A DNA stretch of 64,000 nucleotides from Caldisericia bacterium (GCA_030018355.1 JASEFN010000004.1:152291-216290), one strand, 5' to 3'; shown: positions 25,695-61,581, counted from the first letter of the stretch. Numbers and translations are program-made. Notes: generated from the letters alone by a model not told the origin.

Positions 25695-25695
25695 T

Positions 25696-28873: not shown

Positions 28874-28880
28874 TTTTTCT

Positions 28881-29918: not shown

Positions 29919-29940
29919 AATAATTAACCTCCTTTTTTAT

Positions 29941-32576: not shown

Positions 32577-32609
32577 TTTAATATTTTTAGGGTGAAAAAT
32601 AAGTTCCCT

Positions 32610-38883: not shown

Positions 38884-38916
38884 ATGTTACAAAAGTGTCT
38901 GACACCTTTGTAACAT
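38884..38916. repeat. 33-bp palindromic element, copy 1 (ATGTTACAAAAGTGTCTGACACCTTTGTAACAT).
   Basis: It has 16-bp arms with 1 mismatch. It lies in the divergent intergenic region between the yhhN-like gene start and the FMN riboswitch. Confidence 0.8.
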
Positions 38917-38980
38917 AAGAAGATAATAAGTGAAATTCAAAAATTAAGTAAATGTGATAAAATTAAAAAAGTTAACATAA

Positions 38981-39150
38981 AACCTTCGGGGTCGGGTGGA
39001 ATTCCCTACCGGTGGTAATGGGTTGAGTTAATTTAACTCAACCTTAGCCCACGAGCGTCTCTTCTTCAAAGAGAAGAGATGCAGATTTGGGTGAGATTCC
39101 CGAGCCGACGGTGAAAGTCCGGATGGGAGAAGGTTCCCTCCCCGAAGTCA
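38981..39150 (+). promoter_or_regulatory. FMN riboswitch (RFN element).
   Basis: It matches the RFN consensus blocks: ...CGGGGTCGGGTGGAATTCCCTACCGGTGGTAATGGG...AGCCCACGAGCG...GCAGATTTGGGTGAGATTCCCGAGCCGACGGTGAAAGTCCGGATGGGAGAAGG...CCCCGAAG. The P1 stem is ccttcgggg/ccccgaagg. A CCCTCC anti-RBS lies opposite the GGAGGG RBS of the downstream gene. Confidence 0.8.
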
Positions 39151-39163
39151 AAAGGAGGGAAAG

Positions 39164-39733
39164 ATGAGAAAAAAAACAAAAGAATTAGTTCTTGGTGCAT
39201 TGCTTGCTGCACTTTCTTTTATTTCAATGTATTTTATCCAAATTCCAATTTTTGCTTCAGCGCCATACCTTCAATTTGATCCATCAGAAATTTTCACTCT
39301 CTTTGCTGCATTTTTTATCTCTCCAACAATGGGTGTTCTTGTAACTCTTGTTAAAGTGATTCTTTTTTACTTTACCAAACAGGAAAGTGGAATAATTGGG
39401 TCACTTATGAACTTTTTTGCAGTTGCACCATTTGTTTATTTTGCTGGTGTTATGTTTAAAAAATTAAAAAATTTAATTTATCCTTTAAATTATGTTGTTC
39501 CCATTTTAATTGGCACACTTGTTAGAGTTATTATTATGATACCTCTTAATTTAATCTTCTTACCACTCTTTATTGAAATTGGATTAAAGGAAACTTGGAT
39601 TTACATTTATACAATCAACATTCCATTTAACATAATTGTATCACTTCTTAATGGATTTCTTTTTATTGTTTTTGCTTTTGCTCTATTTAGAATAAAGGAG
39701 ATGAGAAAAAAGTTAGTTGATGTTAAAGAATGA
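39164..39733 (+). CDS. ribU: Riboflavin transporter S-component (ECF-type RibU/YpaA-like). The call rests on the FMN riboswitch context.
   Basis: 189-aa protein with 5-6 TM segments, immediately downstream of the FMN riboswitch, with a strong RBS. Confidence 0.55.
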   Translation: MRKKTKELVLGALLAALSFISMYFIQIPIFASAPYLQFDPSEIFTLFAAFFISPTMGVLVTLVKVILFYFTKQESGIIGSLMNFFAVAPFVYFAGVMFKKLKNLIYPLNYVVPILIGTLVRVIIMIPLNLIFLPLFIEIGLKETWIYIYTINIPFNIIVSLLNGFLFIVFAFALFRIKEMRKKLVDVKE

Positions 39734-41426
39734 AATCTTTTTAAAATTTGAAAAACCTTTAAGATATTTAGGTAGAGAATGGAATTCGGTTTATAAAAAT
39801 CCTAAAGACAAAAAAAGATTCTTACTTATTTATCCCGACCTTTATGAGGTCGGGATTTCTTCTTATGCAATTATTCTTTTATATCATCTCATAAATGAAA
39901 GAGAAGATAGTTTCTGTGAAAGAGTTTTTTCACCCAATTCAGACTTTGAAAATTATTTAATAGAGAATGATCTCCCTCTTTTTTCAATTGAAACAAAAAC
40001 TCCAATAAAAGATTTTCATATATTAGGTTTTAGTTTGCAATCTGAACTTAATTTTACTAATGTTTTAAATATTTTAAAACTTGGAAAAATTGAAATTTTT
40101 TCTAAAGATAGAAAAAATCTCCCAATTATTTTAGGTGGAGGACCACTAACTCTTAATCCATCACCACTTATGCCATTTTTTGATGCTTTTGTGATTGGCG
40201 AAGGAGAAGAGGTTGTAAATGAGATTCTTAATAAATTTGATTTAAATAAAGAGGCTTTTCTTGAAAATCTAAATGAAATTGATGGTATTTTTGTTCCAAA
40301 ATTTGGAAAAAAGAAAATTAAAAAGAGATACATAAAAGATTTTGAAAATTCATACTATCCAAAAAAACCTTTAGTTCCATACATTCAAGTTATTCATGAT
40401 AGAGGAGTTGTTGAGATTTTTAGAGGATGTGATAGAGGCTGCAGATTTTGTGTTTCAGGAATGGAAAAAAGACCAAGAAGAGAAAGAAGCATAAATAAAA
40501 TAGTAGAAATAGTTAACTCAATTATAAAAAACACAGGTTTTGAAGAAATTTCTCTACTTTCTCTTTCAACAACAGATTACTCAAAAATTGAAGAACTTTT
40601 AAAAATTTTAAAAGAGAATCTTAATGATAAAAAAATAACAATCTCTTTACCATCATTAAGAATAGATAGTTTTTCTTTAAAACTACTTGATTTGATTGAT
40701 ACAGGAAGAAGGATAACACTTACCTTTGCACCTGAAGGTGGGAGTGAAAAAATAAGAAAGGTGATGAATAAACCAATAAAAGATGAGGAAATTTTTGAAG
40801 TTATAAGAGAGGCAGTTAAAAGAGGATATAAAAAGATAAAACTCTACTTTCTTGTTGGAGTTCCTTATGAAGATGAAGAAGATATAAAAGGAATAAGAGA
40901 AATTATAAAAAGAATAAAAATTGAAAATAAAGAAATAAAACTTTCAATTTCAATTAATCCTTTTATTCCAAAACCATTTACTCCTTTTCAATGGGAACCC
41001 TTTATTTCAAAAGATGAATATATTAAAAAAATAAAAATTATAAAAAGTGGATTAAAGGATATTAATTTAAATTATAGAGGATGGGAAGAGTCATTTATTG
41101 AAGCAATCCTCTCAAGAGGTGATGAAGAAATTAGTGAATTGATTTATGAGGCCTTTTTATTAGGTGAAAAGTTTTCAAACTGGAGAGAATATTTTCATTT
41201 TGAAATTTGGGAGAGGATTTTAAAAAGAAAGAACTTTAAAATTGTTGATAAAATTTTAAATGGATTTGATTTAAATGATGAGTTTCCATGGGATTTTATT
41301 GATATTGGAATTGATAAAAATTTTTTAATTTGGGAAAGAGAGAAAGCAAAAAGAGGAGAGATAACAGAGCCATGTTTTATGAATTTTGAAAAGTGCTCAT
41401 CATGTGGAGTTTGTTTTAATTTATGA
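39717..41426 (+). CDS. B12-binding-domain radical SAM protein (TIGR03960-like, function unknown).
   Basis: Radical SAM cysteine motif FRGCDRGCRFC, with an N-terminal B12-binding-like domain. It is 569 aa and is paired with a DUF2344 gene. Confidence 0.7.
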   Translation: MMLKNEIFLKFEKPLRYLGREWNSVYKNPKDKKRFLLIYPDLYEVGISSYAIILLYHLINEREDSFCERVFSPNSDFENYLIENDLPLFSIETKTPIKDFHILGFSLQSELNFTNVLNILKLGKIEIFSKDRKNLPIILGGGPLTLNPSPLMPFFDAFVIGEGEEVVNEILNKFDLNKEAFLENLNEIDGIFVPKFGKKKIKKRYIKDFENSYYPKKPLVPYIQVIHDRGVVEIFRGCDRGCRFCVSGMEKRPRRERSINKIVEIVNSIIKNTGFEEISLLSLSTTDYSKIEELLKILKENLNDKKITISLPSLRIDSFSLKLLDLIDTGRRITLTFAPEGGSEKIRKVMNKPIKDEEIFEVIREAVKRGYKKIKLYFLVGVPYEDEEDIKGIREIIKRIKIENKEIKLSISINPFIPKPFTPFQWEPFISKDEYIKKIKIIKSGLKDINLNYRGWEESFIEAILSRGDEEISELIYEAFLLGEKFSNWREYFHFEIWERILKRKNFKIVDKILNGFDLNDEFPWDFIDIGIDKNFLIWEREKAKRGEITEPCFMNFEKCSSCGVCFNL

Positions 41427-42034
41427 TAAGAATCAGAGTTGAATATAAAAAAGAGAATCTTTTTATATTTTTATCTAATCTTGACATAATAAAGTATTTA
41501 GAGAGAACACTAAGAAGAAGTGAGTTACCAATTGTTTATACTCAAGGCTTTAATCCAAAACCTAAAATGGATTTTTCGCCAGCACTTCCTCTTGGAATTC
41601 CAAGTGAGAGTGAAATTTTTGAATTTTATTTAACTCAAAAAACTGCAAATGATCAAATTTTAGAAAAATTAAAGAAAAGTGTTGATAAGGAACTAACAAT
41701 AAAAAGAGTAAGGGAAATAAATATAACTTCACCTTTACTATCTTATCTTATTACTCATTTTGAAATTGAATTAATTGGGGAGATTTTTAGAAAATTTGAT
41801 TTTAAAAATTTCAAAATAAAAAAAGAAAACTATTCATATTTAGAATTAAAAAACTTTCTTTTTCTCGAAGAAGAGATATCTTATGGAAAAAGGTTAATTA
41901 TAAGTAAAAATCTCTCTTTAAGACTTTTTTATGAAAATTTAAAAATATATAGCAATGAGATGCTTTTTATTAAAAAAATAAAAAATTTAAGAATTGAAAA
42001 TGGAAAAATTTATGATTCATTTGATTTAGATTAA
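41423..42034 (+). CDS. DUF2344 (TIGR03936) radical-SAM-linked protein.
   Basis: 203 aa. N-terminal MIRIRVEYKKENLFIFLSNLDIIKYLERTLRRSELPIVYTQGFNPKPKMDF matches the DUF2344 pattern. It overlaps the radical SAM gene by 4 nt. Confidence 0.6.
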   Translation: MIRIRVEYKKENLFIFLSNLDIIKYLERTLRRSELPIVYTQGFNPKPKMDFSPALPLGIPSESEIFEFYLTQKTANDQILEKLKKSVDKELTIKRVREINITSPLLSYLITHFEIELIGEIFRKFDFKNFKIKKENYSYLELKNFLFLEEEISYGKRLIISKNLSLRLFYENLKIYSNEMLFIKKIKNLRIENGKIYDSFDLD

Positions 42035-42056
42035 ATTAGTTGATAAAATAGTTTTA

Positions 42057-42914
42057 ATGCAAAAAGAACTTTTAGTTTTTGGCTCTTTTACAAAAGATTT
42101 TCTTGAAAATCATAAAGGAGATAAGAGAGTTGCAATTGGCGGAAGTTCAGCATATTTTTCAATTTCAACATCCCTTGTTGGATTAAAAGTATATCCTGTG
42201 GGATTTATATCAACTGATATAAATGAAGAAGAATTAGAGACTCTTTCAAAAATAGTTGATTTAAGATATTTAAAAAGGGAGAAAAGATTAAATTTTCATA
42301 TAAAATATGATGAAAATTTAAATGCTCATTATATAAAAGATCTTGAAGAAAATGATGAGATTATTGAATATAAAAATGTACCAATAAAACCATATGTGCA
42401 TGTGTGTGTTATCTCAAGCATTAGAAATCAAATGGATATAATTGAATATTTCAAAGATAAAGGCAGTTTTGTATCAACAGGAACTTATTTAATTAGAGTT
42501 AATAAAGATAGAGAAACTGTTTTAAAAATGTTAAAATTATCAGATTTATTCTTTTTAAATAGAGATGAAGCACTCTCTCTTTCTCAAAAAGAAAATTTTG
42601 ATGATGCATTAGAATTTTTTAAAAATAGTCAAAAAATGGTTGTTATTACCCTTGGAAAAGATGGTGCAATTTTTATAAAAGGAGAGGAATTTTTTAAAGT
42701 AAATGCTTATAAAACAGAGGTTGTTGATCCAACAGGCGCTGGAGAAACATTTGCAGGAGGTTTTTTAGCATCTTATATTCTTTATGGTAATCCTCTTCTT
42801 TCATTAAAATATGGAACTCTATTATCATCTTTTGTAATAGAAGATTTTGGGATAAGCGCTCTTCTTAAGATAAAAAGAGAGGATATCTTAAAAAGATTGG
42901 AGGAGATAAAATGA
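42057..42914 (+). CDS. PfkB-family carbohydrate/nucleoside kinase (ribokinase-like).
   Basis: The C-terminal DPTGAGETFAGGF anion-hole motif is the PfkB signature. It is 285 aa. Confidence 0.65.
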   Translation: MQKELLVFGSFTKDFLENHKGDKRVAIGGSSAYFSISTSLVGLKVYPVGFISTDINEEELETLSKIVDLRYLKREKRLNFHIKYDENLNAHYIKDLEENDEIIEYKNVPIKPYVHVCVISSIRNQMDIIEYFKDKGSFVSTGTYLIRVNKDRETVLKMLKLSDLFFLNRDEALSLSQKENFDDALEFFKNSQKMVVITLGKDGAIFIKGEEFFKVNAYKTEVVDPTGAGETFAGGFLASYILYGNPLLSLKYGTLLSSFVIEDFGISALLKIKREDILKRLEEIK

Positions 42915-43885
42915 TTGAGATTAATTTTGATAAAGTTAATTCTATAAGCAATTTTTTAAAAAATTTTGAAATAAATTATGATGTTTTGCCTGGAGTTGAA
43001 AAAGCAAAAGATAGAGACGATGCAAAGGAAAAACTGACACTTCTCTTTTATGTAGATGCAATATGTCATCAAACACAAAATTTTTATGGTGAAATTGATG
43101 GAGTTTTTTATAAAGGTTGGGACTACCTTCTCTACTCTTTTAAAAAGGAGTATGAAAAAGATAAAAGTTTTATAAAAACAAAAAGGATGAAAAAAATCAG
43201 AGGTGATGATTTAAAAAGAATTTTGAATGGCTCTGGAGATAGATATTATGAGAGAGCGCATCTTTTGAGAAATTGTGCTTTTATTCTTGAAAGAGATTTT
43301 AAAGGAGACATTTTTGAAATTTATAATCTTTCAGAAGGTTATATAAAAAGAGAAGGCAAACCTGATCTTATAACTCTTTTTCATAAATTTAAAGCATATA
43401 AAGACCCACTCAATAAAAAAACTTTTCTTTTCTTAAACATTGCAAAGAAGGTCGGGTTTTGGGAAATAAAAGATCCCCATTCTTTGTGGACACCGGTTGA
43501 TTATCACCTTGAAAGGGTTAGTTTAAGAGTTGGCTTGGTTGATGTTTCTGAAAAAATAAAAAAGAAGTTAGTTTTAGGAAAAAGGGTTTCCCAAAAATTT
43601 GATTTATCTTTAAGAGAAAAAATTGGTAGTGCAGTAAAAGAAATTTCAAATTTATCAGGAATCTCAATTGAAAAATTGGATCAAGTATTTTGGTCTCTTG
43701 GAAGAAGTATTTGTTTTAAAGACGGACCAAAGTGCGATGGAGTTTTTGATGAAAATAACACATTTACTAAGATAACTCATATATCGCTAAAAAATGGGTG
43801 TCCATTTAAAGAATTTTGTAATGCTTATAAAAATATTGAACTAAGAAATTTAAAAGAATCAAACATTTACACCATCTTCTACTAA
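42911..43885 (+). CDS. DUF2419/Qng1-like queuosine-salvage family protein (queuosine 5'-phosphate N-glycosylase/hydrolase-like).
   Basis: Blocks FYVDAICHQTQNF, YYERAHLLRNCAFILE and PVDYHLERVSLRVGLVD parallel the conserved TDTLNFSFW / FYKRAQILVADTW / DYRLPQVLAHLGAL blocks of Qng1 (C9orf64). It is 324 aa and overlaps the PfkB kinase gene by 4 nt. Confidence 0.5.
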   Translation: MIEINFDKVNSISNFLKNFEINYDVLPGVEKAKDRDDAKEKLTLLFYVDAICHQTQNFYGEIDGVFYKGWDYLLYSFKKEYEKDKSFIKTKRMKKIRGDDLKRILNGSGDRYYERAHLLRNCAFILERDFKGDIFEIYNLSEGYIKREGKPDLITLFHKFKAYKDPLNKKTFLFLNIAKKVGFWEIKDPHSLWTPVDYHLERVSLRVGLVDVSEKIKKKLVLGKRVSQKFDLSLREKIGSAVKEISNLSGISIEKLDQVFWSLGRSICFKDGPKCDGVFDENNTFTKITHISLKNGCPFKEFCNAYKNIELRNLKESNIYTIFY

Positions 43886-43887
43886 CT

Positions 43888-43920
43888 ATGTTACAAAGGT
43901 GTCTGACACCATAGTAACAT
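43888..43920. repeat. 33-bp palindromic element, copy 2 (ATGTTACAAAGGTGTCTGACACCATAGTAACAT).
   Basis: It starts 2 nt after the stop codon of the upstream gene. It directly abuts a sigma70-like promoter (TTGAAA-16-TATAAT at 43922-43949) that drives the SAM riboswitch and metK. Confidence 0.8.
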
Positions 43921-43959
43921 GTTGAAAATTTTGAGAAAATCTATATAATTTTTAAAGAG

Positions 43960-44076
43960 CCTTCTTATCAAGAGTGGCGGAGGGAACTGGCCCTGTGAAG
44001 CCCGGCAACCTGTGTCTCAAAGGCATAAGGTGCCAAATCCAGCAGGCTCAATATTTGCCTGGGAGATAAGAAGGTT
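43960..44076 (+). promoter_or_regulatory. SAM-I riboswitch (S-box).
   Basis: TTCTTATCAAGAGTGGCGGAGGGAACTGGCCCTGTGAAGCCCGGCAACC...GGTGCCAAATCCAGCAGGC...GGGAGATAAGAAG matches the S-box consensus. It sits directly upstream of metK. Confidence 0.85.
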
Positions 44077-44111
44077 GTCTTCTCCCAGAGTAAAAGTAAA
44101 GGAGGTATTTT

Positions 44112-45278
44112 ATGAGAAAATATCTTTTTACATCTGAATCAGTAACAGAAGGACACCCAGATAAAATTGCTGATCAAATTGCAGATACGGTTTTAGATGA
44201 ATGTTTAAAAGTAGATCCATTTTCTAGGGTTGCCTGTGAAGTTATCACAACAACTGGCCTTGTGCATGTTGCTGGAGAAATTACAACAAAAGCAAGATTA
44301 GATTATCAAGAAATTGTAAGGAATGTAATAAAAGATATTGGTTATGATAAAGAGGGGTATGGCTTTAACTATGAAAGTGTTGGAGTAATTGTTTCTGTTA
44401 AAGAGCAATCTCCTGATATTGCAATGGGAGTGGATAAGGCTCTTGAATCAAAAGAGGGGGAGATGGAAGAAACTCTGGGAGCAGGAGATCAGGGAATTAT
44501 GTTTGGTTATGCAACAAATGAAACTCCAGAATTTATGCCAATGCCAATTATGCTTTCTCATAAATTGTGCAAAAGACTTGCTGAAGTAAGAAAAAAAGGA
44601 ATTCTTCCGTATTTAAGACCAGATGGAAAATCTCAAGTAACAGTTGAATATAATGAGAGAAAACCAAAAAGAGTTACAAAAATTGTTCTTTCAGCACAAC
44701 ATGATCCAGATGTGCCTCTTGAAAAATTAAGAGAAGATCTTATTGAAACAGTCATAAAGCATGTTATTCCAAGTCATATGCTTGAGACGACTGAATATTT
44801 TATAAATCCAACAGGAAGATTTGTTATTGGTGGTCCAAAAGGAGATACAGGTCTTACAGGTAGAAAAACAATTGTTGATACTTATGGTGGAATGGCTAAA
44901 AATGGCGGAGGTTGTTTTTCTGGAAAAGATCCAACAAAGGTTGATAGGAGTGCATCTTACATGGCAAGATATGTTGCAAAAAATATAGTTGCAGCAGGTC
45001 TTGCAGATAAAGTTGAAATTCAAGTTGCATATGCAATAGGCAAAGCAAAACCCGTTGCTCTTTTTGTGGATACATTTGGAACTGGAAAAATTGATGATGA
45101 AAAACTTGAAAAATTTATTGAAGAGAAGATAGATTTTACTCCTCTTGGTATGATAAATAAACTTAATTTAAGACAACCAATTTATAGAAAAACTGCATGC
45201 TATGGACACTTTGGATGGGAAGAGTATCCTTGGGAAAAACTTGATCTTGTCCCACTCTTCAAATCTCTCCTTGAGTAA
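44112..45278 (+). CDS. metK: S-adenosylmethionine synthetase.
   Basis: 388 aa. It carries the motifs ...[16 protein letters not shown]..., GAGDQG and DTYGG, and is preceded by an S-box riboswitch. Confidence 0.95.
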
Positions 45279-47277
45279 AATTGCAGATGTTTTTATTGAG
45301 GATGTACCACTCATAAAAGAAGATTTACCACTTTTTTCATATGTAATTCCTGAAAAATTAATAGAAAAAATTGATATTGGAAAAAGGGTTTTTGTTCCTT
45401 TTGGTAGGGGAAATAAATTAAAAAGGGGAATAATTATAAAAATTTGGGATGGGTCAAAAGAAAATTTAAAAGAGATAATAGATCTTGTTTCAGATTATAA
45501 AATTATTGATGATGTTGGTATAAGAGTTTTATTAAAATTACATGAAAAATATTTTGCTCCTATCTCAACTATTTTAAAAAAGATTTTACCACTTGGAAAA
45601 AGCAAAAAAGGAGAAGAGATAATTAAACTAATTGATTTTGAATTTGAAAAGAGCCTCTCTTTTCGTGAAAAAAGGAAGTTTGAACTCCTAAACTTTATTC
45701 AAGAGAGTGGTGGTGAAATAAAATTAAGAATTCTTAAGAAATTTTTCTCTTCAAAAGTCATAAATGATCTAATAAAAAGGGGGATAATAATAAAAAAATA
45801 TGAGTTTCCAAAAGGAAGAAAAGCAGAAAGAGGTATGATTGAAGAGAAAAAATTTGAAAATGTAAAAGATATTTCAATTGATGAAAATACAATTTTATAT
45901 GGTTTTACATATAAAGAGAGATGGAACTACTATGTTGATTTGATAAAATCATATGTTTCAAAAGATAAAAAGATAAAAATTATTTTTCCTGAGAAAATTG
46001 AAGTTGAAGAGTTTTATAAATTTATTCCAGATGAAGTAAAAATTATCTCTGAAAAAATAACAGGAGAAGAAGGAAAAAGGGAGAGAGAAACTATTTTAAA
46101 AGAAATTTATGAAAATAAAATAAAAATTCTTATTGGAACAACAATATCTCTTCTTCTTCCTTTAGATGAAAATTTGCTTATTATTGAGAATGAATCAAGA
46201 TTTAAAGAACTTGAAGATATTCTCTCTTTAAAAATAATAGAATTTGTAAGAACTTATGCACAAGAGAAAAATATTAAAATTCTAATTGGTTCACTATATC
46301 CATCTTTCGAAGCACTTCTTACATCAAAAAGAGAGAAATTTAATATAATAAAGAAAAAATTTAGTTTAAAGAATATTGAAATTTTATATAGAGATTCTGA
46401 AAGGTTAATTACACCATATATAAAAAACTTAATTATAAAAAGTAAAAATAAGAAAATTTTTATTTTTTATCCAAGAAAAGGTTATTTTCAATATCTTTTT
46501 TGTGATGAGTGCGGATACACTTCAAAATGTCCAAAATGTAAAGTTCCGCTAACATATTTCAAAGAAGAGGGAAAACTTATATGTAAAATTTGTGGTTATG
46601 AAAAACTTCCTTTTGATATTTGTCCACAATGTGGTGGATTTTCAATGAGATTTTCATCTCCAGGAATAGAAAGAGTAAAAGAAAAATTTAAAAAAATCTT
46701 TAAAGATAAAATTATTCTTGAGTTAGATGATTGGATTACAAAAGGAAGTGATAAAAAAAGAAGAGAGATTGAAAATGAATTTATGCTTAATGGAGATATT
46801 TTAATAGGTACTCATCTAATTTTACCACTTTTAAAAAGAGTTAATAATTTCATCTTTATCTTTCTTGATATAGATTTTATGCTTAACTTTCCAGAGTATG
46901 ACTCTTTTGAAAATATTTTTTATCTTATTTTAAGAGTAATTGAGGAATCAAATGTAAATCAAGGAAAAATTTATTTGCAAACAAAATTTCCAAAAAATAT
47001 TATTTTTAAGGCATTTAAAGAGAAAAACCTCTCTCTCTTTATAAATGATGAATTAAAAAGAAGAAAAGAAACAAAATTTCCGCCATATTATAAATATGTT
47101 GTGATTGAAGATATTCAAAAAGAATATTTAGATGAATTTTTAAAATTAAAAGAAAATGATGATGAGATTTATTATTTTAACGGAACATTAAAGATTAAAA
47201 CGAAAAATTTTTTCAAATTTAAATCAATTTTTGATAAAATTAAATATGAAAAGACTTTAAGAATTAAGGAGTTTTGA
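45271..47277 (+). CDS. priA: PriA-like primosomal protein N' with degenerate ATPase/helicase motifs. The start is reassigned to an in-frame TTG that overlaps the metK stop.
   Basis: The N-terminal PriA 3'-DNA-binding-like segment ([16 protein letters not shown]...[15 protein letters not shown]) begins at the TTG at 45271. The ORF-track ATG at 45202 lies inside metK. The C-terminal Cys4 zinc-binding cluster (CDECGY..CPKC...CKICGY...CPQCGG) is present. The Walker A position reads GFTYKERW, the DEEH position reads IENESR and the motif-VI position reads RVIEESNV. Confidence 0.65.
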
Positions 47278-48700: not shown

Positions 48701-48704
48701 ATTT

Positions 48705-50030: not shown

Positions 50031-50090
50031 TTTAATATACCTCCTTAAAAATTAAATTTTATATATACCACTTCTCAAATTTTTGTCAAC

Positions 50091-50155
50091 ATGTTACAAA
50101 AGTGTCAGGCACCTTTGTAACATGTTACTATGGTGTCAGGCACCATTGTAACATG
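50091..50155. repeat. Tandem pair of 33-bp palindromic elements (copies 3 and 4). They overlap at a palindromic GTAACATGTTAC junction.
   Basis: ATGTTACAAAAGTGTCAGGCACCTTTGTAACAT and catGTTACTATGGTGTCAGGCACCATTGTAACATGG. They lie in the divergent glnA / DUF296 promoter region, 2 nt upstream of a TATAAT box. Confidence 0.8.
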
Positions 50156-50184
50156 GTGTATAATAATTATTAGAGGTTAATTAT

Positions 50185-50613
50185 ATGAAATATATTAAAG
50201 ATGGTGGTATTATTTTTGTGGTTATGGAAAAAGGAGAGAGAATTAAGGATAATTTAGAAAAACTAATTCTTAAAGAAAAAGTTTTAGATTGTGGAATTAT
50301 TTTATCATCAACTGGAATGGTTAAAAATGTTGAAGTAGGTTTTGGATATTATGATGGAAAAAATGTATCTTATGAAAAAGAAATTTTAGAGGGACCATTT
50401 GAACTTTTAAGCATGAGTGGATTACTTATAAATAATGAAAACTATCCATTTCATATTCATATAAATTTAGGAGATAAAGAAAAAAGAAGTTTTGGAGGAC
50501 ATCTTTTTGATGGAGAAATTCATACATTTATAGAAATGGCAATAATTGAATCAAATTTAAAATTAGAAAGAAAATTAAAAGATGGTTTAAATTTACTCAA
50601 TTTTAAACATTAA
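50185..50613 (+). CDS. PPC/DUF296-domain protein (predicted DNA-binding protein with a PD1-like fold).
   Basis: 142 aa. Motifs ...GFGYYDG... and ...FHIHINLGD...GGHL are typical of DUF296. An RBS GAGG precedes the start. Confidence 0.5.
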   Translation: MKYIKDGGIIFVVMEKGERIKDNLEKLILKEKVLDCGIILSSTGMVKNVEVGFGYYDGKNVSYEKEILEGPFELLSMSGLLINNENYPFHIHINLGDKEKRSFGGHLFDGEIHTFIEMAIIESNLKLERKLKDGLNLLNFKH

Positions 50614-50668
50614 AACATTTCTAATTTCCTTGTTATAATATTAAAGTTATTTTTAAAGGAGTTTTATT

Positions 50669-53287: not shown

Positions 53288-54019
53288 TTAAAATAAACTC
53301 TTTTCAATCACAAACTTTTCTAAAATTAATTTATAAATTTCTTCATAACTATTTGCTGAAAACTCATTGCAATTTTCTTTTCCCCTTGAAAAATGAATAT
53401 AGTTTATTCCACAATTTTTTGCACCAAGGCAATCTTTTTCAAAACTATCCCCAATATGTAAAACTTCACTTTTTTCTACCTTAAACTCATCTAAAATTTT
53501 TTGAAAATTTTTTTTATTTGGCTTAACAAACCCCAATTCATCAGAAAAGAAGGTTTTATCAAAATAATCTAAAAGTGAATATCTTCTCAAAATTTCTCTT
53601 AATGCCCATCCTGGAGTCCTTCCAGCATCAGATAGGATACATAGTTTAATATTTAATTTTTTCAACTTTTTTATAAAATCTTCAACTTCATCAATAAGTG
53701 GAGGTGGAATTTCAAAAATTGCTGTTTCATAAACTTTTTTCACATCTTCCAAAACAACTTTATTTGGTTTTATTCCAAAAATTTTATAAAAATAACATAT
53801 CTGCTTTTCTGTGTTTACACTTTTTAAAGTTTTTTTCTGAGTTGAGAAAAGCCAATTACTCATTTTTTCATATGCTTTTTTTGCATCTGAATATGAAATG
53901 TTAAGAGGGGAGAGATATTCTAAAAGTTTTTTTAATCTTATCTCTCCCCTCTTCTCTTCAAGATCTTCTCTGTCTTCAATTATTGTGTCCCAAAGATCTA
54001 AACTTATTACTTTAAGCAA
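53288..54019 (-). CDS. HAD-superfamily hydrolase.
   Basis: HAD motif I ISLDLWDT near the N-terminus and a C-terminal GDSFEKD (motif IV). It is 243 aa and overlaps the ftsH stop by 8 nt. Confidence 0.7.
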   Translation of the reverse strand: MLKVISLDLWDTIIEDREDLEEKRGEIRLKKLLEYLSPLNISYSDAKKAYEKMSNWLFSTQKKTLKSVNTEKQICYFYKIFGIKPNKVVLEDVKKVYETAIFEIPPPLIDEVEDFIKKLKKLNIKLCILSDAGRTPGWALREILRRYSLLDYFDKTFFSDELGFVKPNKKNFQKILDEFKVEKSEVLHIGDSFEKDCLGAKNCGINYIHFSRGKENCNEFSANSYEEIYKLILEKFVIEKSLF

Positions 54020-55850
54020 CTTTTTCTTTTCTAATATCTTCGAGAATTCTCTTTAACTCTTCTCCTTCAATTGTCTCTTTCTCAAGTAAGACATCAACTA
54101 CTTTATAAACTCCCTCTTCATTCTCTTTTAGAATTTTCTTTGCCCTCTCAAAGCACTCCTCAACAATATTTCTTACCTCTTTATCTATCTCATAAGCGAT
54201 CTGTTCTGAATAATCTCTCTCTGATGCAATATCTCTTCCTAAAAATATGTATTCACTTTTTCTTCCAAAAGTAAGAGGTCCTAATCTTTCACTCATTCCA
54301 AATTCTGTTACCATTTTCCTTACAATTTCAGTTGCTCTTCTAAGATCATTTTCTGCACCAGTTGTTTTATCTTTTGTAAATAGTTCTTCTGCTGCTCTAC
54401 CACCAAGAAGTGTAGTCACTTCTGAAAGAAGTTGTTCTCTTGTTCTTAAAAATTTCTCCTGTTCTGGAAGTTGAAGTGTATAACCTAATGCCATTCCTCT
54501 TGAAACTATTGAAATTCTATGAACTGGGTCAGAACCTGGTAGCATATTTGCAACTACAGCATGACCTGTCTCATGAAATGCAATAATTCTTTTTTCTTCT
54601 TCTGAAACAACTCTTGTTTTTTTCTGTGGGCCTGCAATAACTCTATCAATTGCCTCTTCAAGTTCATCCATTGTAATATATTTTTTATTTCTTCTTGCTG
54701 CAAGAAGTGCTGCTTCATTCACTAAATTTTCAAGATCTGCTCCAGTAAAACCTGCTGTTCTTTTTGCAAGAGTAGTCAAATTTATATCTGGTCCAAGTGG
54801 TTTGTTTCTTGTGTGAATCTTTAAAATTGCTTCTCTCTCTTTTACATCTGGATAATTTACAACAACTCTTCTATCAAATCTTCCGGGACGTAAAAGCGCA
54901 GGATCTAAAATATCTGGTCTATTTGTTGCTGCAATTACTATTATTCCACTATTTGGATCAAATCCATCCATCTCAACAAGAAGTTGGTTTAATGTTTGCT
55001 CTCTTTCATCATGTCCACCACCAAGACCTGCACCTCTTTGCCTTCCAACAGCATCTATTTCATCAATAAATATGATACAAGGAGCATATTTTTTTGCTTC
55101 ATTAAATAAATCTCTTACTCTTGCTGCACCAACTCCAACAAACATTTCAACAAATTCAGAGCCAGAAACAGAGAAAAATGGAACCCCAGCCTCCCCTGCA
55201 ACTGCTTTAGCAAGAAGAGTTTTTCCACAACCAGGTGGTCCAACAAGAAGAATTCCTTTTGGAATCTTTGCACCAAGTGCTGCAAATTTTCTTGGGTTTC
55301 TTAAAAATTCAATTTCTTCTTGCAAATCTTCTTTTACCTCTTCTAATCCTGCAACATCATTAAATGTTACTTTTGGCTTATTTTCTATAAAGAGCCTTGC
55401 TCTACTTTTTCCAAAGTTAAAAACTTGTGAATTTGCCCCTCCAGAAATGGCTCTCATCATTATCATCCAGAAAAAGATAAGAAGAATTACTGAACCAATG
55501 TTTGTTAAAACATACCACCATGTTCCACTATTTGAAGTTGGTTTAATTGTTGCATTAACTCCTTTTTCAATAAGAAGATTTGGAAGATTTGGATCATCAA
55601 ATGGAGGAAGAACTGTTGTGAATTTTGAACCATCTAAATATGTTCCAGTTACATTTTGACCATCAATTGTGATTTCTTTTACTTTTCCATCTTTAACTTT
55701 TAAAATAAATTCTGTATAAGAAATTTTTTCAGTTGAAGTGAGACTTGATGATCCAGAATAGAAACTATAAATAAAGTAAACAAAAATTATCATTAATATA
55801 ATTGGTAAAATGCTTCTAATTATATTAAATATGTTATTATTTTTTTTCAT
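54012..55850 (-). CDS. ftsH: ATP-dependent zinc metalloprotease FtsH.
   Basis: An N-terminal TM segment is followed by the AAA Walker A GPPGCGKT, the SRH and the HEXGH zinc site (HETGHA). It is 612 aa. Confidence 0.95.
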
Positions 55851-56400
55851 ATTTCATCACCTCATACATATAAACTTCAGGTTTCAAAACACAAATATAA
55901 GGAAGATTTCTATATTTTTCATTAAAATCAAGACCATAACCCACAACAAACTCATCTGGAACTTCAAAACCGTAAAATTCAACTGGAACTTCTTTTATCC
56001 TTCTTACTTTTTTATTTAAAAGTGCAACTGTTTGAAGAGATAAGGGTTTCCTTGAGGAAAGTAGTTCTCTAAGGTGAGATAAAGTTAAACCTGTATCAAC
56101 TATATCTTCAACAATTAATACATGTCTACCTTCTATTGAGTGATCAAGATCTTTCGTTATTTTAATTATACCAGAACTTTTTGTAGATGCACCATATGAT
56201 GAAATTCCCATAAAATCTAATGATAAATAAATATCCATCTCTTTAATTAAATCAGATAAAAAAATTGTTGCACCCTTTAAAATACAAACAAGGTGTGGAA
56301 ATAAATTTCTATAAACTTCACTAATTTCCTTTGCAAGTTCTTTAACTCTTTTTTTTATCTCTTCTTCTGTTATAAGAATCTTTTGTATATCTTTGTCCAT
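55837..56400 (-). CDS. hpt: Hypoxanthine-guanine phosphoribosyltransferase.
   Basis: 187 aa. PRPP-binding motif VLIVEDIVDTGLT is present. It lies within a conserved tilS-hpt-ftsH arrangement. Confidence 0.9.
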   Translation of the reverse strand: MDKDIQKILITEEEIKKRVKELAKEISEVYRNLFPHLVCILKGATIFLSDLIKEMDIYLSLDFMGISSYGASTKSSGIIKITKDLDHSIEGRHVLIVEDIVDTGLTLSHLRELLSSRKPLSLQTVALLNKKVRRIKEVPVEFYGFEVPDEFVVGYGLDFNEKYRNLPYICVLKPEVYMYEVMKYEKK

Positions 56401-57767
56401 TCATTATCCTCCAATTTAATTGTAATATATAAAACTCTTTTTGTCATCTCATTAACCTTATAATCATCGCTTATTCTTAATCCAATAATCCATAGTATAT
56501 CACCTTTTGAGTCATAAAGAATAGGTATTTTCCACTTAACACTTTTTGGAATTTTTATATCTGTAAGAAAATCTTGAATTTTTTTAGAGTTTTTCATCCC
56601 AAGTGGAGTTACTCTAAACCCATATTTTGGAGGTTTAATATAAAGAGGAAATGAAATTTTATCAAAATCAAAATATGCCTCAAATTTATCTTTTGTTTTT
56701 TCTATTCTTTCAACTATTTTAAGAGAAATAGTTAAGCCTTCTTTTTTAATCTCTCCTAAATCTTTTATTTCAATTAAAAAATCTTTAAAAGTGGGCTTTT
56801 CTCTTTCAATTACAATATTCTTTCTTTCCCTTATTGCAATTAAATTTTTTGACATTTTTATCTCTTTTCCACTTTTTTTATCAACCAAAGAGATGATATC
56901 ATCAATGTTTTTAACTGAAAATTCTCTTATCTCTTCTTTAAACTTTTCAATTATCTTTCTTATAACTCTTCTTTGAATTGATTTATGAAGATTTTTAAAT
57001 TTTTCTATTTCAATGAAATATGAATCTTCCTCCTCTTTAACTATCTCTTTAAATTTTTCTTGAGTAACACTTTCAAGAAAATCTTCATCTACCCTTATAA
57101 GATTACTTAAATCAAAAACTCTTTCTCTAAATGATTTATTAAATGTATTCTCAATATATGGAATTAACTCGTTTCTTATTTTGTTTCTTAAATAGATGTT
57201 CTCCAAATTTGTTTTATCAATTCTATATTCTATTTCTTTCTCTTTTAAATAATTTATTATTTCTTCTCTTTTTACAACAAGAATTGGATGAATTATATCT
57301 TCTCTTTTTGGTAATATTCCTTTTAAACCACTTAAACCTGTCCCTCTAATAAAATTCATTAAAATTGTCTCTATGTGATCATCAAAATTATGAGCAAGTG
57401 CTATTTTTGTATAGCCTTCTTTCTTTTTTATTTCATTGAAAAAAAGAAACCTCTCCTCTCTTCCGACCTCCTCAATTGACTTTTTTCTCTCTTCGCTTAA
57501 CTTTTTTATGTTTAATCTCCTAACATAGAGAGGAATTTTTAATTTTTGAGATATAATTCTTACAAAATCTTCATCTAAATCAGAATCTTCACCTCTTAAA
57601 AGATGGTTTAAATGTGCAAGTATTAAAGAATTTTTATAATTTTCTTTTAAAAAATAAACAAGGAAAGTTGAGTCAGGACCACCTGAAAATGCAACCACAA
57701 TTTTATCTTGAGGCATAATAATGGAATTTTCTTCAATAAAATTTTTTACTTTAGATATTAAATTCAT
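56370..57767 (-). CDS. tilS: tRNA(Ile)-lysidine synthetase. The start is reassigned to the internal ATG at 57767 to avoid overlap with the tRNA.
   Basis: PP-loop SGGPDS (VVAFSGGPDSTFL) is present. The ORF-track start at 57800 would overlap the tRNA at 57773-57849. An in-frame ATG at 57767 gives MNLISKVKNF... Confidence 0.8.
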   Translation of the reverse strand: MNLISKVKNFIEENSIIMPQDKIVVAFSGGPDSTFLVYFLKENYKNSLILAHLNHLLRGEDSDLDEDFVRIISQKLKIPLYVRRLNIKKLSEERKKSIEEVGREERFLFFNEIKKKEGYTKIALAHNFDDHIETILMNFIRGTGLSGLKGILPKREDIIHPILVVKREEIINYLKEKEIEYRIDKTNLENIYLRNKIRNELIPYIENTFNKSFRERVFDLSNLIRVDEDFLESVTQEKFKEIVKEEEDSYFIEIEKFKNLHKSIQRRVIRKIIEKFKEEIREFSVKNIDDIISLVDKKSGKEIKMSKNLIAIRERKNIVIEREKPTFKDFLIEIKDLGEIKKEGLTISLKIVERIEKTKDKFEAYFDFDKISFPLYIKPPKYGFRVTPLGMKNSKKIQDFLTDIKIPKSVKWKIPILYDSKGDILWIIGLRISDDYKVNEMTKRVLYITIKLEDNEWTKIYKRFL

Positions 57768-57772
57768 TTTAA

Positions 57773-57849
57773 TGGTGGCGGCGGAGGGAGTCGAACCCAC
57801 GACACCACGGGTATGAGCCGTGTGCTCTGACCAACTGAGCTACGCCGCC
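57773..57849 (-). tRNA. tRNA with anticodon CAT (elongator Met or lysidine-modified Ile2). It has an encoded CCA and a fully paired 1:72 acceptor end, so it is not an initiator.
   Basis: Reverse complement is GGCGGCGTAGCTCAGTTGGTCAGAGCACACGGCTCATACCCGTGGTGTCGTGGGTTCGACTCCCTCCGCCGCCACCA. It folds as a cloverleaf with a 7-bp acceptor, a D-arm, anticodon loop CTCATAC and a T-arm GTGGG/CCCTC with TTCGACT. Confidence 0.85.
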
Positions 57850-58051
57850 TTAATTCAAATTTTACTAAATTTAAAAAAAGTTTCAATAAAAAATTTTGAT
57901 TAATAATTAATAATTTTTTACTATAACAATTGCATTTGCACCAAGTCTTTCTTCTCTTAAAGTCATTTCTTTAAATACATCTTCTTTTGCCTACAATGTT
58001 GAGTTTTATTGTTAAAATCACAAACTCTTCCAAAGTTAGAAAATGATGTTT

Positions 58052-59335
58052 TTATTGAAGATAATTATAATTTTTTTTAAAATATTCTTCAATTTTTTTA
58101 CCTAATTTTTGTTGAACTCCCCAATCTCCAAAAACAATTTTATCTTTTAAATTTTCTTTTATAAAATTCTTTATTTTTTCATCTACCTTCCCACTTTTTT
58201 TAAATTGAAATGGAGTTTGAGGAAGTGGAATAAATGTATGCGCGTGAATTTTTGCACCCATTTGAACTAAATCTTTCATAACTTTTAATGTATCTTCAAT
58301 ATCTTCTTCCTCCTCTCCTGGAAGACCAAAAATAAAATCAACAATTGGTTTTATATTAAACTTAATTGAAAGTTCAACAGATTTATAAATCTCTTTAACT
58401 CCATGACCTCTATTTATTAAACTTAAAACTCTTTCACTTCCAGACTGTGCACCAATTACAATTGAATCATTAGATGCATATTTTTTTAACAATATAAGCG
58501 TTTCTTCTAAAACAAAATCTGGCCTCACTTCAGATGGAAATGTGCCAAGAAAAATCCTTCCTTTATCTTTTAAAACTCTCTTTATCTCTTTTAAAAGTTC
58601 TTCAAGAGAATTTAAATTTAAACTTTTCCCATCTTTTGATCCATAGGAAAAAGCATTTGGAGTTATAAATCTTATATCTACTAAATTTAATTTTTTCATA
58701 ATTTCAATGTATTTAATTATATTCTCAATGCTTCTGTGCCTTATCTTTCCACTAAAAATATATGGAGTTTGACAATAGAAACAAAAAAATGGGCATCCTC
58801 TTGTTATTTCAATAGGACTAAATTTTTCATATTTTATAGAAAAAGGCGGATAAAGATTTATATCAACAGGATCACTAAGTTGGGAAATATTGAATTCTCC
58901 ATCTTTTTTTGATGAAATGCCTTTTATATTTTCAAAATCCTTGTTTTCTATTAAATTTATTAAAAATTTTATAAAACTCTCCTCACCTTCTCCTCTAAAA
59001 ATATAATCAAAACCCATTTTCAGTGGACCAAGTGGTTCTCCTGTTGGATGTGGTCCTCCTCCAACAATTAAAATTTTATCTTTATAAATTTCCCTCAATT
59101 TCTTTACCAAATCTAAAATTTCAAAGATTTGTGTTGTGAAAAAAGAGAAAAGAAAAAGATTTTTTGTATCTTTATCAATTAATTGTGAAAGATTAAAAAG
59201 ATCTTCTTTTTTATTTATAAAAATTACATTTATATCTTTTAATCTCTCATCTATCTCAATTGCTCCTAAGAGAGAATTAAAACTGTATCTATTGTTTTTA
59301 TTATAATAAATAACTAAATTTAAGTTGGTTTTCAC
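58052..59335 (-). CDS. B12-binding-domain radical SAM protein.
   Basis: Radical SAM motif RGCPFFCFYC, with an N-terminal Rossmann-like B12-binding region. It is 427 aa. Confidence 0.7.
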   Translation of the reverse strand: MKTNLNLVIYYNKNNRYSFNSLLGAIEIDERLKDINVIFINKKEDLFNLSQLIDKDTKNLFLFSFFTTQIFEILDLVKKLREIYKDKILIVGGGPHPTGEPLGPLKMGFDYIFRGEGEESFIKFLINLIENKDFENIKGISSKKDGEFNISQLSDPVDINLYPPFSIKYEKFSPIEITRGCPFFCFYCQTPYIFSGKIRHRSIENIIKYIEIMKKLNLVDIRFITPNAFSYGSKDGKSLNLNSLEELLKEIKRVLKDKGRIFLGTFPSEVRPDFVLEETLILLKKYASNDSIVIGAQSGSERVLSLINRGHGVKEIYKSVELSIKFNIKPIVDFIFGLPGEEEEDIEDTLKVMKDLVQMGAKIHAHTFIPLPQTPFQFKKSGKVDEKIKNFIKENLKDKIVFGDWGVQQKLGKKIEEYFKKNYNYLQ

Positions 59336-60525
59336 TATTCAAAGAAAATAATTGAATCAATTTTAATTTTAAGTTTTTCATTAAGATTTATTTTGTTTTC
59401 ACCATTAAAATTCATAAGGATATAATTTTTTTCTTGAACTCCCTCTTTTATTTCACTTATAATTATGTTTTCTTTTGAAGTTGAAATTATTAAATCTCCA
59501 CCATAAAAATAGTTTTCATTAGTAAATTTTTTAAAAGATCTCTTTTCTAAATCTATTCCAAATAAAAGATATTTTGATATGCTACTCTCTTGAGCCATTA
59601 AATATAGATAATTTTCAAAAGAACCTCTAATATAAAAGTCAGTAAATTGAGGAACTTCAAAATTTTTTAAAATATTTCCATTTCTATCAATTATCATAAT
59701 ATACGGCTTTTTATTTTGATCAAAAGGAACAATTTTAAAAACTATTTCATCTGAGTTATTTATAAACATCTCATTATAAATTTCACCTTCATTTGTTTTA
59801 AAAATAGTTTTTGTATTACGGCTCTTTAAATCTAAAATCTCGATAGTTGAAATTTTAGATTTACTATCAAAAGTTCTTCCTAAAACTTCTCCCATCAGAT
59901 TTGAATTTCCTTGAAAATAGAAGTTATCTTTAAAACTTAAGTAGTTTTCATTAAATTCATCTGAAGAGTAAGAATAAAGAGCAATTTTAGATTTTTCTTC
60001 TTTTTGTTTTAAAAGATGAATATAAACATTTTTTGAATCTTCATCAACATAAATTGGATATATATAAGTGGAAATAATAGTAGTTGAGATGGGTTTTTTA
60101 TTTTTAAGTTTTAAATTGTAAATATAAAGATACTCACTTTCATAACTCTCTTTTAATGTGAACAAAATGTTTTCATTATCCAAAAATTTTGGAGAGTATG
60201 GAAAATTTCCTAAAAGACCTTCAGTTAAATTTAAAATATCTTTTGTATCAAGATCTAACAAAAATATTCCACTTTTTTTAAAATCAGAAGAGTAATAATT
60301 AAAAAGAACTTTCTTATTTCTTATCTCTCCAAGGAGCACCTTTCCATCTAAACCAGTTTCAATTTCATCTATTTTATTTAAATTTTTATCAAAAAGAATG
60401 ATTTTCCCTTCACATGAAATAATTAAAAAAGGTAATCTTTCTACTTTGCAAGAATTGAGAAAGAGTAAAAAGATAAAAAATATGGTAATAACAATAAAAA
60501 CTCTTTTTTTCATTAAAACCTCCAC
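59335..60525 (-). CDS. Putative lipoprotein (lipobox LNSC), probably a beta-propeller, unknown function.
   Basis: The signal peptide MKKRVFIVITIFFIFLLFLNSC has a Cys lipobox. The repetitive beta-rich composition is otherwise uninformative. Confidence 0.4.
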   Translation of the reverse strand: MEVLMKKRVFIVITIFFIFLLFLNSCKVERLPFLIISCEGKIILFDKNLNKIDEIETGLDGKVLLGEIRNKKVLFNYYSSDFKKSGIFLLDLDTKDILNLTEGLLGNFPYSPKFLDNENILFTLKESYESEYLYIYNLKLKNKKPISTTIISTYIYPIYVDEDSKNVYIHLLKQKEEKSKIALYSYSSDEFNENYLSFKDNFYFQGNSNLMGEVLGRTFDSKSKISTIEILDLKSRNTKTIFKTNEGEIYNEMFINNSDEIVFKIVPFDQNKKPYIMIIDRNGNILKNFEVPQFTDFYIRGSFENYLYLMAQESSISKYLLFGIDLEKRSFKKFTNENYFYGGDLIISTSKENIIISEIKEGVQEKNYILMNFNGENKINLNEKLKIKIDSIIFFE

Positions 60526-60568
60526 TTTTTATTATAAAATGAAAAGTATATATTTAAAAATTTAAGGA

Positions 60569-61546
60569 GTGAAAATGATAAAGATATATGAAGGAGTTGG
60601 TGAGGAAATTATTCCTCTCTTTAATAGTGTTACTCCAGAACTTGAGGTTGATATTAAAAAGTGGAGATGGAAATATATTGAAAATCCACTCAAAGAAAAT
60701 TTAATTGCTGTTTTTGAAACTGATAAAGGCGAAATCGTTGGAGAGGAGGCAATTGTTCCTTTTAAAGCATATTTTAAAGGAAAAATAGTAAAAATAGGAC
60801 ACTCAGTAGACTCTATGGTTTTAGAAAATTTTAGAGGAAGAGGAATCTTTAAAAGACTTGCAATTAAAACTCTCGAAGAGGGGAAAACAAGAGGTTACTA
60901 CTACTTTTATGGATTTCCAAACAAAAACTCACTTCCAATTTACACAAAAAAGTTAGGCTGGATTAGTTTTGGGTATATAAGAAGGTGGATTTTTCCTCTT
61001 AACCTTAATATTCTCTCTACTAAATTTAAAATTGACCTTTCAATTCTATCATCTCTTTTTAAATTTAATAAATCTCTTCTTAAGAGGAAATTTAATTTTA
61101 TTAAAGTGCAAAATTTTAGCGGAGTTGAAAAATATTTGGATAATTTAAAAAATCATTATGATATTTTTCTTTTAAGAGATGAGGAGTTTTTAACATGGAG
61201 ATATCTTTCTCACCCATATTATATTTATGAAATTTTTAAAGATGATGATTCGCTTTTTATTTTAAGAATAAAAGAGGTTGATATTAAAAGAGGAACAATT
61301 GAAGAATTTTTGTATAAAAACTATGAATCTTTTTCAAAACTCGTCTCTTTTTCTTTAAGATTTTTCATTGAAAATAATGTTGACTTAGTTGATATTTGGA
61401 TAAAGCAAGGAGATCCACTTGAAAGAATTCTTTTCTTTAAAGGATTTATTCCATATCAAAAAAGATTAATTATACTTTATCCATTTGAAAAAATTCATTT
61501 CTCAAAAAATTACTTCTTTAACTTTTCTGATCTTGACGTTATTTAA
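60569..61546 (+). CDS. GNAT-fold acyltransferase-like protein (FemAB/DUF-type), unknown substrate.
   Basis: ...LENFRGRGIFKRLAIK... resembles the GNAT acetyl-CoA-binding R/Q-x-x-G-x-G/A motif. It is 325 aa. Confidence 0.35.
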   Translation: MKMIKIYEGVGEEIIPLFNSVTPELEVDIKKWRWKYIENPLKENLIAVFETDKGEIVGEEAIVPFKAYFKGKIVKIGHSVDSMVLENFRGRGIFKRLAIKTLEEGKTRGYYYFYGFPNKNSLPIYTKKLGWISFGYIRRWIFPLNLNILSTKFKIDLSILSSLFKFNKSLLKRKFNFIKVQNFSGVEKYLDNLKNHYDIFLLRDEEFLTWRYLSHPYYIYEIFKDDDSLFILRIKEVDIKRGTIEEFLYKNYESFSKLVSFSLRFFIENNVDLVDIWIKQGDPLERILFFKGFIPYQKRLIILYPFEKIHFSKNYFFNFSDLDVI

Positions 61547-61548
61547 AA

Positions 61549-61581
61549 ATGTTACAATGGTGTCAGACACTTTTTTAACAT
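61549..61581. repeat. 33-bp palindromic element, copy 5 (ATGTTACAATGGTGTCAGACACTTTTTTAACAT).
   Basis: It starts 2 nt after the stop codon of the upstream gene. It is 2 nt upstream of the -10-like TATAGA and the RBS of the ferritin-like gene. Confidence 0.7.

Follow-up and report, generated by a model that had tools for sequence, protein, structure and literature searches.

What is a palindrome doing when it stands next to a promoter? The question is raised by a 64,000-nucleotide stretch of the genome of a Caldisericia bacterium (GCA_030018355.1 JASEFN010000004.1:152291-216290), here called the window, in which five copies of a 33-bp palindrome lie near ribU, metK, glnA, a PCC/DUF296 gene and a ferritin-like gene. 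An earlier inspection of this DNA without database searches (the sequence-only reading) offered two explanations, a family of repetitive extragenic palindromic (REP)-like or regulatory hairpin elements, or the binding site of a global regulator. We find that the repeat family is limited to the palindrome itself and is restricted to one lineage. On balance we lean, with some reserve, toward the view that the five sites are a lineage-specific, untagged REP-like repeat whose effects on promoters would be incidental.

A pattern search of the window finds the palindrome at five sites (starting at 38884, 43888, 50091, 50122 and 61549), each matching on both strands with two mismatches or fewer. Allowing up to three mismatches gives 10 strand-matches, against 0.00 expected from 100 shuffles, and all five copies are intergenic, as the sequence-only reading had stated. 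The consensus of the five is ATGTTAC-N4-GTGTC-W-GRCAC-N4-GTAACAT. Its core is a 31-bp palindrome, TGTTAC-N4-GTGTC-N-GACAC-N4-GTAACA, which becomes 33 bp when the A/T flanks are counted. The arms had been described as perfect; in the window they form 13-15 of 16 pairs, with the mismatches lying within the N4 block or as a T.G pair at the core (copies 3 and 4). The N4 blocks (AAAA, AAAG, TATG, AATG) are often unequal between the two arms of one copy. Outside the five copies, the half-site ATGTTAC-N4-GTGTC (ATGTTACNNNNGTGTC) and the core GTGTC-N-GACAC (GTGTCNGACAC) give one chance match in 64 kb. Copies 3 and 4 are in tandem with only the dinucleotide AT in common, so that their 31-bp cores TGTTAC...GTAACA abut exactly; the fourth copy had been placed at 50121 and in fact starts at 50122. 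The element is 33 bp long, which is within the 20-40 bp expected of a REP palindrome, and complementarity extends to 13-16 of the 16 positions of an arm. No copy is found in the first 38 kb of the window or in the 10 kb past its right end. The copies, with two promoter elements as context, are as follows.

38884..38916, no strand: copy 1, ATGTTACAAAAGTGTCTGACACCTTTGTAACAT, between the divergent yhhN-like gene (-) and the flavin mononucleotide (FMN) riboswitch with ribU (+).
43888..43920, no strand: copy 2, ATGTTACAAAGGTGTCTGACACCATAGTAACAT, between a Q-salvage-like gene and the metK -35.
43922..43949, + strand: promoter of metK and its S-adenosylmethionine (SAM) riboswitch, TTGAAA-16-TATAAT, 11/12 matches; context, outside the repeat.
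50091..50123, no strand: copy 3, ATGTTACAAAAGTGTCAGGCACCTTTGTAACAT, beside the glnA promoter (-).
50084..50089, - strand: glnA -35, TTGACA, from sequence reading and alignment; context, kept in all relatives.
50122..50154, no strand: copy 4, ATGTTACTATGGTGTCAGGCACCATTGTAACAT, in tandem with copy 3 and upstream of the PCC/DUF296 gene.
61549..61581, no strand: copy 5, ATGTTACAATGGTGTCAGACACTTTTTTAACAT, between a GNAT gene and an EncFtn-like ferritin gene.

Two of the five copies follow a gene end. Copies 2 and 5 each start 2 nt past a TAA, as had been noticed before, the stop codons being those of the Q-salvage-like gene (open reading frame (ORF) end 43885) and the GNAT gene (ORF end 61546). The other three (copies 1, 3 and 4) lie between divergent genes, facing the yhhN-like gene (copy 1) and glnA (copies 3 and 4) on the minus strand, again as first described. 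At metK the end of copy 2 lies 1 nt before the -35, and the abutting promoter that the sequence-only reading had seen there is present. On the minus strand, copy 3 similarly ends 1 nt before the glnA -35 (GTAACAT-g-TTGACA). A predicted yhhN promoter (ATGAAA-17-TATAAT) begins at the left edge of copy 1, and a predicted promoter for ribU and its FMN riboswitch (TTCAAA-16-TAAAAT) lies 19 nt to the right of that copy. A -10 box had been put 2 nt after copies 4 and 5; the actual distances are 4 nt to the TATAAT of the PCC/DUF296 gene and 1 nt to a TATAGA upstream of the ferritin gene. The FMN and SAM riboswitches downstream of copies 1 and 2 are confirmed. The center of the palindrome, CTGACA, itself resembles a -35. 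In a consensus scan its partners are GATAAT, lying 17 nt downstream, at copy 1 (38899-38927, +) and AAAAAT at copy 3 (50108-50079, -). We rejected a promoter carried by the palindrome itself, as a plausible -10 partner for this center is found only at copy 1.

The history of these sites can be followed in related genomes. Comparison loci are given L numbers, and the syntenic ones were taken from members of the metK and glnA 90% clusters. Assemblies of the same species (99.3-100% identical) keep every copy that they cover, these being copies 2-4 in L121, copies 3 and 4 in L122-L125, and copy 5 in L149 and L159. Three further relatives (L144, L148 and L151) are 85-89% identical to the window in the nucleotides of metK and, where covered, glnA, and a fourth (L157) was placed by metK protein distance alone, its metK upstream region being identical to that of L151. 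Within about 21 kb of synteny we find no palindrome in any of the four, by nhmmer and with one-third of the conserved positions allowed to be mismatched, although their riboswitches and -35 and -10 boxes are conserved. The metK promoter hexamers are kept in all relatives, with or without the palindrome.

Absence at these sites has sharp edges. Copy 2 is missing from L144, L148, L151 and L157, and homology between the window and L148 breaks at 43885|43921, which are the edges of the copy; on its upstream side the short spacer likewise differs in the outgroups. In the alignment of the spacer between glnA and the PCC gene, copies 3 and 4 form one block that is missing from L144 and L148. Judged from these alignments, the element behaves at its promoter-proximal edges as a block that is present or absent relative to the outgroup species. 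Remnants of an arm stand beside both -35 boxes in L148 (ATGTTACAAAA at glnA and AGTAAATATG at metK), which suggests that the element was lost there rather than never present. The same genome has at the position of copy 2 a 1.1-kb AT-rich insert (8700-9800) with ORFs of 58 and 52 aa, between the Q-salvage-like gene and the metK promoter.

The palindrome is found, in altered form, at the corresponding places in two sister species. In L152 (metK 92.9% identical) two tandem palindromes abut the metK -35 and one abuts the glnA -35, and both ends of this contig fall inside palindromes. In L158 two tandem palindromes lie between glnA and the PCC gene and are orthologous to copies 3 and 4. The inner cores are GTACC-N-GGCAC in L152 and GTACC-N-GGTAC or GTGCC-N-GGTAC in L158, both unlike the window. 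The palindrome is kept at metK and glnA in two sister species at 89-93% nucleotide identity and absent in three to four species at 85-89%, and the lineage-specific variants and presence or absence at orthologous sites that mark REPs and REPINs are both found here. Copy 1 is absent in a further sister species, L160, where synteny differs.

Comparison of orthologous copies separates the element into two zones. The outer heptamers show 0/42 differences against 16/57 in the inner 19 bp (p=5.6e-5), and the spacer flanking the orthologous palindromes differs by 17-19%. By this measure the outer heptamers are constrained while the inner 19 bp drifts.

Some observations on the genes beside these copies may be added. 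The PCC/DUF296 gene (50185-50613) is intact in the window and in L158, and two relatives without the palindrome have remnants of 63 aa (L144 16015-16206) and 30 aa (L148 16331-16423). We considered that the gene might be an inserted cassette bounded by palindromes, and rejected this because the relatives hold decayed remnants of it. In L121 the Q-salvage-like gene and fmt (2800-3769 and 7625-8516) are each broken into two ORFs, which compared with the window reflect either frameshifts or errors of assembly. In L144 there is an IS110-family transposase (2404-3588) upstream of the ribU region, and the yhhN-like neighbor is missing from that stretch.

A second family of nearly the same palindrome occurs far from the Caldisericia. 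When a strict pattern with 20 specified bases was scanned against a metagenome collection, 18 loci alone were returned, all of about 70% GC and from two samples of one project. Their consensus is TTGTTACG-N-AGGTGTC-W-GACACCT-N-CGTAACAA. A dihydropyrimidinase on one of the contigs falls in a 90% cluster with an Ilumatobacter sp. protein, and on this basis we place the host in the Acidimicrobiia. The 18 loci are distinct places whose common sequence is limited to the palindrome (31-65 bp). When genes are called by third-codon-position GC (GC3), a stop codon stands 0-5 nt away from at least 11 of the 18 copies; the genes on either side are often housekeeping genes, convergent or in tandem, such as ftsY|ffh. 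Their flanks often prolong the palindrome and supply part of a TGA or TAG. This near-identical family in an Ilumatobacter-like actinobacterium hugs stop codons, as classical REPs do. Here too there are distinct variants at one junction, that between the dihydropyrimidinase and aldehyde dehydrogenase genes. L153, from a related Ilumatobacter, has a diverged palindrome there (TTTCACCAGGGGTC-T-GACCCCTGGTGCAA) that is different from the one in L142, and another relative, L155, has none.

Between the two families, the AT-rich blocks TGTTAC/GTAACA and the block GGTGTC.GACACC persist at 27% as at 70% genomic GC, and the variable N4 block tracks the composition of the genome. In L138 (1429-1444) the right arm GACACCTTCGTAACAA is repeated once directly after the full palindrome, a partial tandem duplication. 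Other long palindromes with a single-base center, such as ACTCGTGAACGAGGTGCGCACC-T-GGTGCGCACCTCGTTCACGAGA, are seen in L153 (17867-17911) and L155 (12530-12552), suggesting that Ilumatobacter relatives may hold several families of hairpin repeat. Each window palindrome can also be read on both strands as a mini-ORF of nine codons, from ATG to an in-frame TAA (MLQKCLTPL*, for example 38884-38913), and the Ilumatobacter palindrome as TTG...TAA (LLRRCQTPA*, for example L127 352-381); at copies 2 and 5 this reading gives a stop-restart arrangement, TAA-NN-ATG.

How closely does the element resemble known repeats? Like a REP, it is an imperfect palindrome of 20-40 bp, multi-copy and strictly extragenic. 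It often lies directly after or overlapping stop codons (the Ilumatobacter copies, and copies 2 and 5 of the window), and it occurs as adjacent pairs and lineage-specific variants, present or absent at orthologous sites. REPs that supply or abut stop codons, and untagged REP-like families, have been described (Di Nocera et al. 2013, PMC3733652). We file the element with these on account of its tandem copies, its units limited to the palindrome, its lineage variants at fixed sites, the 3'-end twin family in another phylum, and the stop codons that the repeat supplies or abuts (cf. PMC3733652). It differs from typical REPs in being a full palindrome with a single-base center rather than a stem and loop, in lying within the window mostly at promoters or between divergent genes, and in having conserved blocks common to two phyla of opposite GC content; no REP-associated tyrosine transposase (RAYT) was found in the loci examined.

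REPINs are inverted REP pairs with a spacer that depend on a single-copy RAYT flanked by REPs (Bertels and Rainey 2011, PMC3116915). They form vertically inherited, long-persisting populations of short lineage-specific palindromes (PMC3116915). This agrees with the species-specific cores of L152, L158 and the window, and of L142 compared with L153; the points of difference would be the inverted pairing and the dependence on a RAYT. The TRIT, a palindromic 'terminator' motif, is reported to be restricted to Mycobacterium (Gardner et al. 2011, PMC3152330), and its authors also suspected an unknown binding factor (PMC3152330). By its description it is similar in being a highly conserved, bidirectional palindromic repeat of an actinobacterium with a narrow placement around stop codons (PMC3152330), and it differs in that three of the five window copies are not tied to gene ends.

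Several observations weigh against classing the sites with REPs. The element has no unpaired GTAG or CGTC tag, its ends being ATGTTAC / TTGTTAC, so that it can be filed only with the untagged REP-like families. Its copy number is five in about 74 kb surveyed, all within 23 kb, and the position of three of the five between divergent genes and beside promoter hexamers is atypical. Pfam scans of 30 window proteins reveal no transposase or RAYT, and the gene tables of related loci list no transposase beside a palindrome. Folding is weak in two window copies, and the covariation of the 16-bp stem is not significant, being equaled by 42/500 and 75/500 shuffles in two sets of sequences. The invariance of the outer heptamers at fixed orthologous sites points to purifying selection at the level of the host, which a purely selfish element does not predict. 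Finally, the match between two phyla could be convergence, for which a non-rigorous estimate puts the chance at roughly 1-5%.

Another explanation is that a lineage-specific DNA-binding regulator or architectural protein uses the palindrome as its operator. A dimer of dimers or a tetramer would bind ATGTTAC and GTAACAT (19 bp apart) together with the inner GTGYC boxes one helical turn inside, acting from about -38 to -70 (metK, glnA and possibly yhhN) or over the core promoter (PCC and ferritin). The palindrome ends 1 nt from the -35 at metK and glnA in three species, overlaps the -35/spacer region at the PCC and ferritin genes, and is in tandem at the divergent glnA/PCC promoters. Its outer heptamers stay invariant while flanks and inner bases diverge, which is not expected of a dead selfish copy, and recognition as duplex fits better than a hairpin with N4 blocks whose complementarity is not maintained and with the low hairpin energy of some copies. 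Yet three to four relatives, 85-89% identical, lack the palindrome at these same conserved promoters, a result that the sequence-only reading had named in advance as counting against a regulator. The neighboring genes serve riboflavin uptake, SAM synthesis, glutamine synthesis, DUF296 with an ABC exporter, a ferritin-like protein and a lysoplasmalogenase; they are functionally unrelated and form no coherent regulon. The distance from palindrome to promoter varies among sites, the Ilumatobacter family lies at gene 3' ends and between convergent genes rather than at promoters, and the window contains no candidate regulator besides a CRISPR-linked WYL protein. Nor does a known operator fit. The ATGTTA...TAACAT ends resemble the half-sites of the GlnR/TnrA operator of Firmicutes (TGTNA-N7-TNACA), and one locus is glnA, but the half-sites are spaced by 21 bp rather than 7, no 17-bp box can be fitted to any of the five sequences, four of the five sites are unconnected with nitrogen metabolism, and the element is absent from the glnA promoters of the outgroups. 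The earlier judgment that the element is unlike CIRCE and the GlnR/TnrA box holds. The proposal of a global operator is weakened by the absences, even though sister species keep its position and the heptamers are constrained, and we regard it as a serious though rather unlikely alternative. The proposal of a REP-like family gains from those absences, from the tandem copies and from the 3'-end twin family in an unrelated phylum, with the qualification that the family is untagged.

The palindrome might instead act in RNA, as a bidirectional terminator or a stabilizer of 3' ends of the kind proposed for transcribed REPs and the TRIT. This would suit copies 2 and 5, which directly follow stop codons, and the Ilumatobacter copies, which do so too and fold as DNA at -16.8 kcal/mol; the TRIT is similarly narrow in its placement (PMC3152330). 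The window hairpins are weaker, from -4.6 kcal/mol (copy 5, the weakest) to -10.7 kcal/mol as DNA, with copy 1 at -9.5 kcal/mol. Copies 1, 3 and 4 lie between divergent genes and upstream of predicted promoters, and are therefore probably untranscribed. At copies 2-5 the scans call no intrinsic terminator (a G+C-rich hairpin with a U-tract). The hairpins lack a following U-tract, and there is one marginal terminator-like call at copy 1, on the minus strand. G.T wobbles occur on differing strands relative to the genes, and no Rfam family matches. Compensatory changes in the stem (GTGTC/GACAC, GTGTC/GGCAC, GTACC/GGTAC and others) are convincing by eye, but they were not significant and we do not use them as evidence; in the Ilumatobacter set just one pair varies, and 6 of the 14 distinct sequences do not pair there. 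Since the palindromy rests on invariant positions, a hairpin and a symmetric duplex site are not separated by these data. Overall a role in RNA seems improbable to us. We give still less credence to a minimal MITE (miniature inverted-repeat transposable element), consisting of terminal inverted repeats alone, the collapsed remnant of an insertion sequence (IS) moved in trans by the transposase of that IS. The outermost 7 bp are the most conserved, like the tips of terminal inverted repeats, and the AT...AT flanks of the window copies can be read as a 2-bp target duplication, the tandem copies sharing exactly AT. These flanks are ambiguous, because AT is itself a palindrome and a target duplication is indistinguishable from the palindrome ends, and in Ilumatobacter the flanks are complementary (T..A, C..G) and not direct. 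Moreover, at 31-33 bp with nothing between the arms the element is much shorter than known MITEs (about 50 bp or more), and no parent IS is seen in any locus examined.

Searches for a known counterpart return little. There is no Rfam family at the gathering threshold, with sub-threshold matches to generic miRNA-like hairpins alone; plasmid BLAST with both versions of the palindrome gives chance partial matches only, and a scan of IMG/VR gives no match. A looser scan of genome contigs with TGTTACNNNNGTGTCNGNCAC (15 specified bases) gave 120 chance matches in unrelated taxa and no full palindrome, two of them, in the Firestonebacteria locus L011, being an unrelated tandem repeat. In the literature, searched both by topic and by fragments of the sequence, we found the motif nowhere described. 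Resemblances to parS (TGTTTCACGTGAAACA), the GACAC motif of WhiA, matS and split operators of the NikR type were also considered, and none fits in spacing or distribution.

If the five sites are indeed an untagged REP-like repeat, the following course of events can be suggested. The palindrome would have been acquired, in intergenic DNA, by the ancestor that this Caldisericia species shares with its closest sisters; it would sometimes have duplicated in tandem and would since then have been inherited in place. The conserved blocks may be recognized by a sequence-specific protein responsible for spreading or maintaining the copies, most plausibly a transposase or nuclease of the REP-mobilizing type acting on duplex or extruded-hairpin DNA. 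Sharing between two phyla might reflect horizontal transfer of that system, or a common specificity of the protein. Adjacency to -35 and -10 boxes would mark where insertions are tolerated or targeted, in large, AT-rich intergenic DNA. Any effects on expression of metK, glnA, ribU, PCC or ferritin, for instance by displacement of AT-rich upstream DNA, would be a by-product, with no conserved regulon. A further and more speculative proposal, which we hold tentatively and think on the whole unlikely, is that an undescribed protein system common to Caldisericota and Acidimicrobiia recognizes TGTTAC and GGTGTC-N-GACACC. It comes from the retention of these blocks against backgrounds of 27% and 70% GC in two phyla and from their invariance at orthologous sites. 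Such a system could be a non-RAYT enzyme that mobilizes or maintains REPs, or a host factor that uses palindromes as punctuation upstream of promoters or at gene ends.

The first 36 kb of the window is a defense island. In it a very large CRISPR array, with some 105 repeats (Rfam CRISPR-DR2), lies beside a type I-B cas operon (Cas1, Cas4, Cas3, Cas5, Cas7, Cas8b/TM1802 and Cas6) and a WYL-domain helix-turn-helix regulator (16757-23756 and 24208-33575). A DISARM-like set at 6881-15422 comprises a DUF1156 N6-adenine methyltransferase, an SNF2 helicase with NOV_C, and an 845-aa protein with no Pfam match. Homologues of the nickel-pincer cofactor genes LarC (Ni insertion), LarB (AIRC-like) and LarE (PP-loop) lie at 2274-4998. 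We also asked whether the strand switch near 38.8 kb marks a replication origin, and rejected this because the GC skew merely tracks gene orientation, including its reversal at 53-60 kb.

Proteobacteria commonly carry short palindromic repeats, but in the literature we found none described from phyla that branch deeply and are mostly uncultured, such as Caldisericota. The present family is short enough for its whole anatomy to be read directly, and it can be tracked across sister species at fixed loci. Its near-twin in a high-GC actinobacterium offers a way to ask which protein recognizes such repeats and whether they cross phyla. For annotation there is a lesson in that a palindrome abutting a promoter need not be an operator, and a cheap test is to see whether close relatives whose promoters are conserved lack it there.

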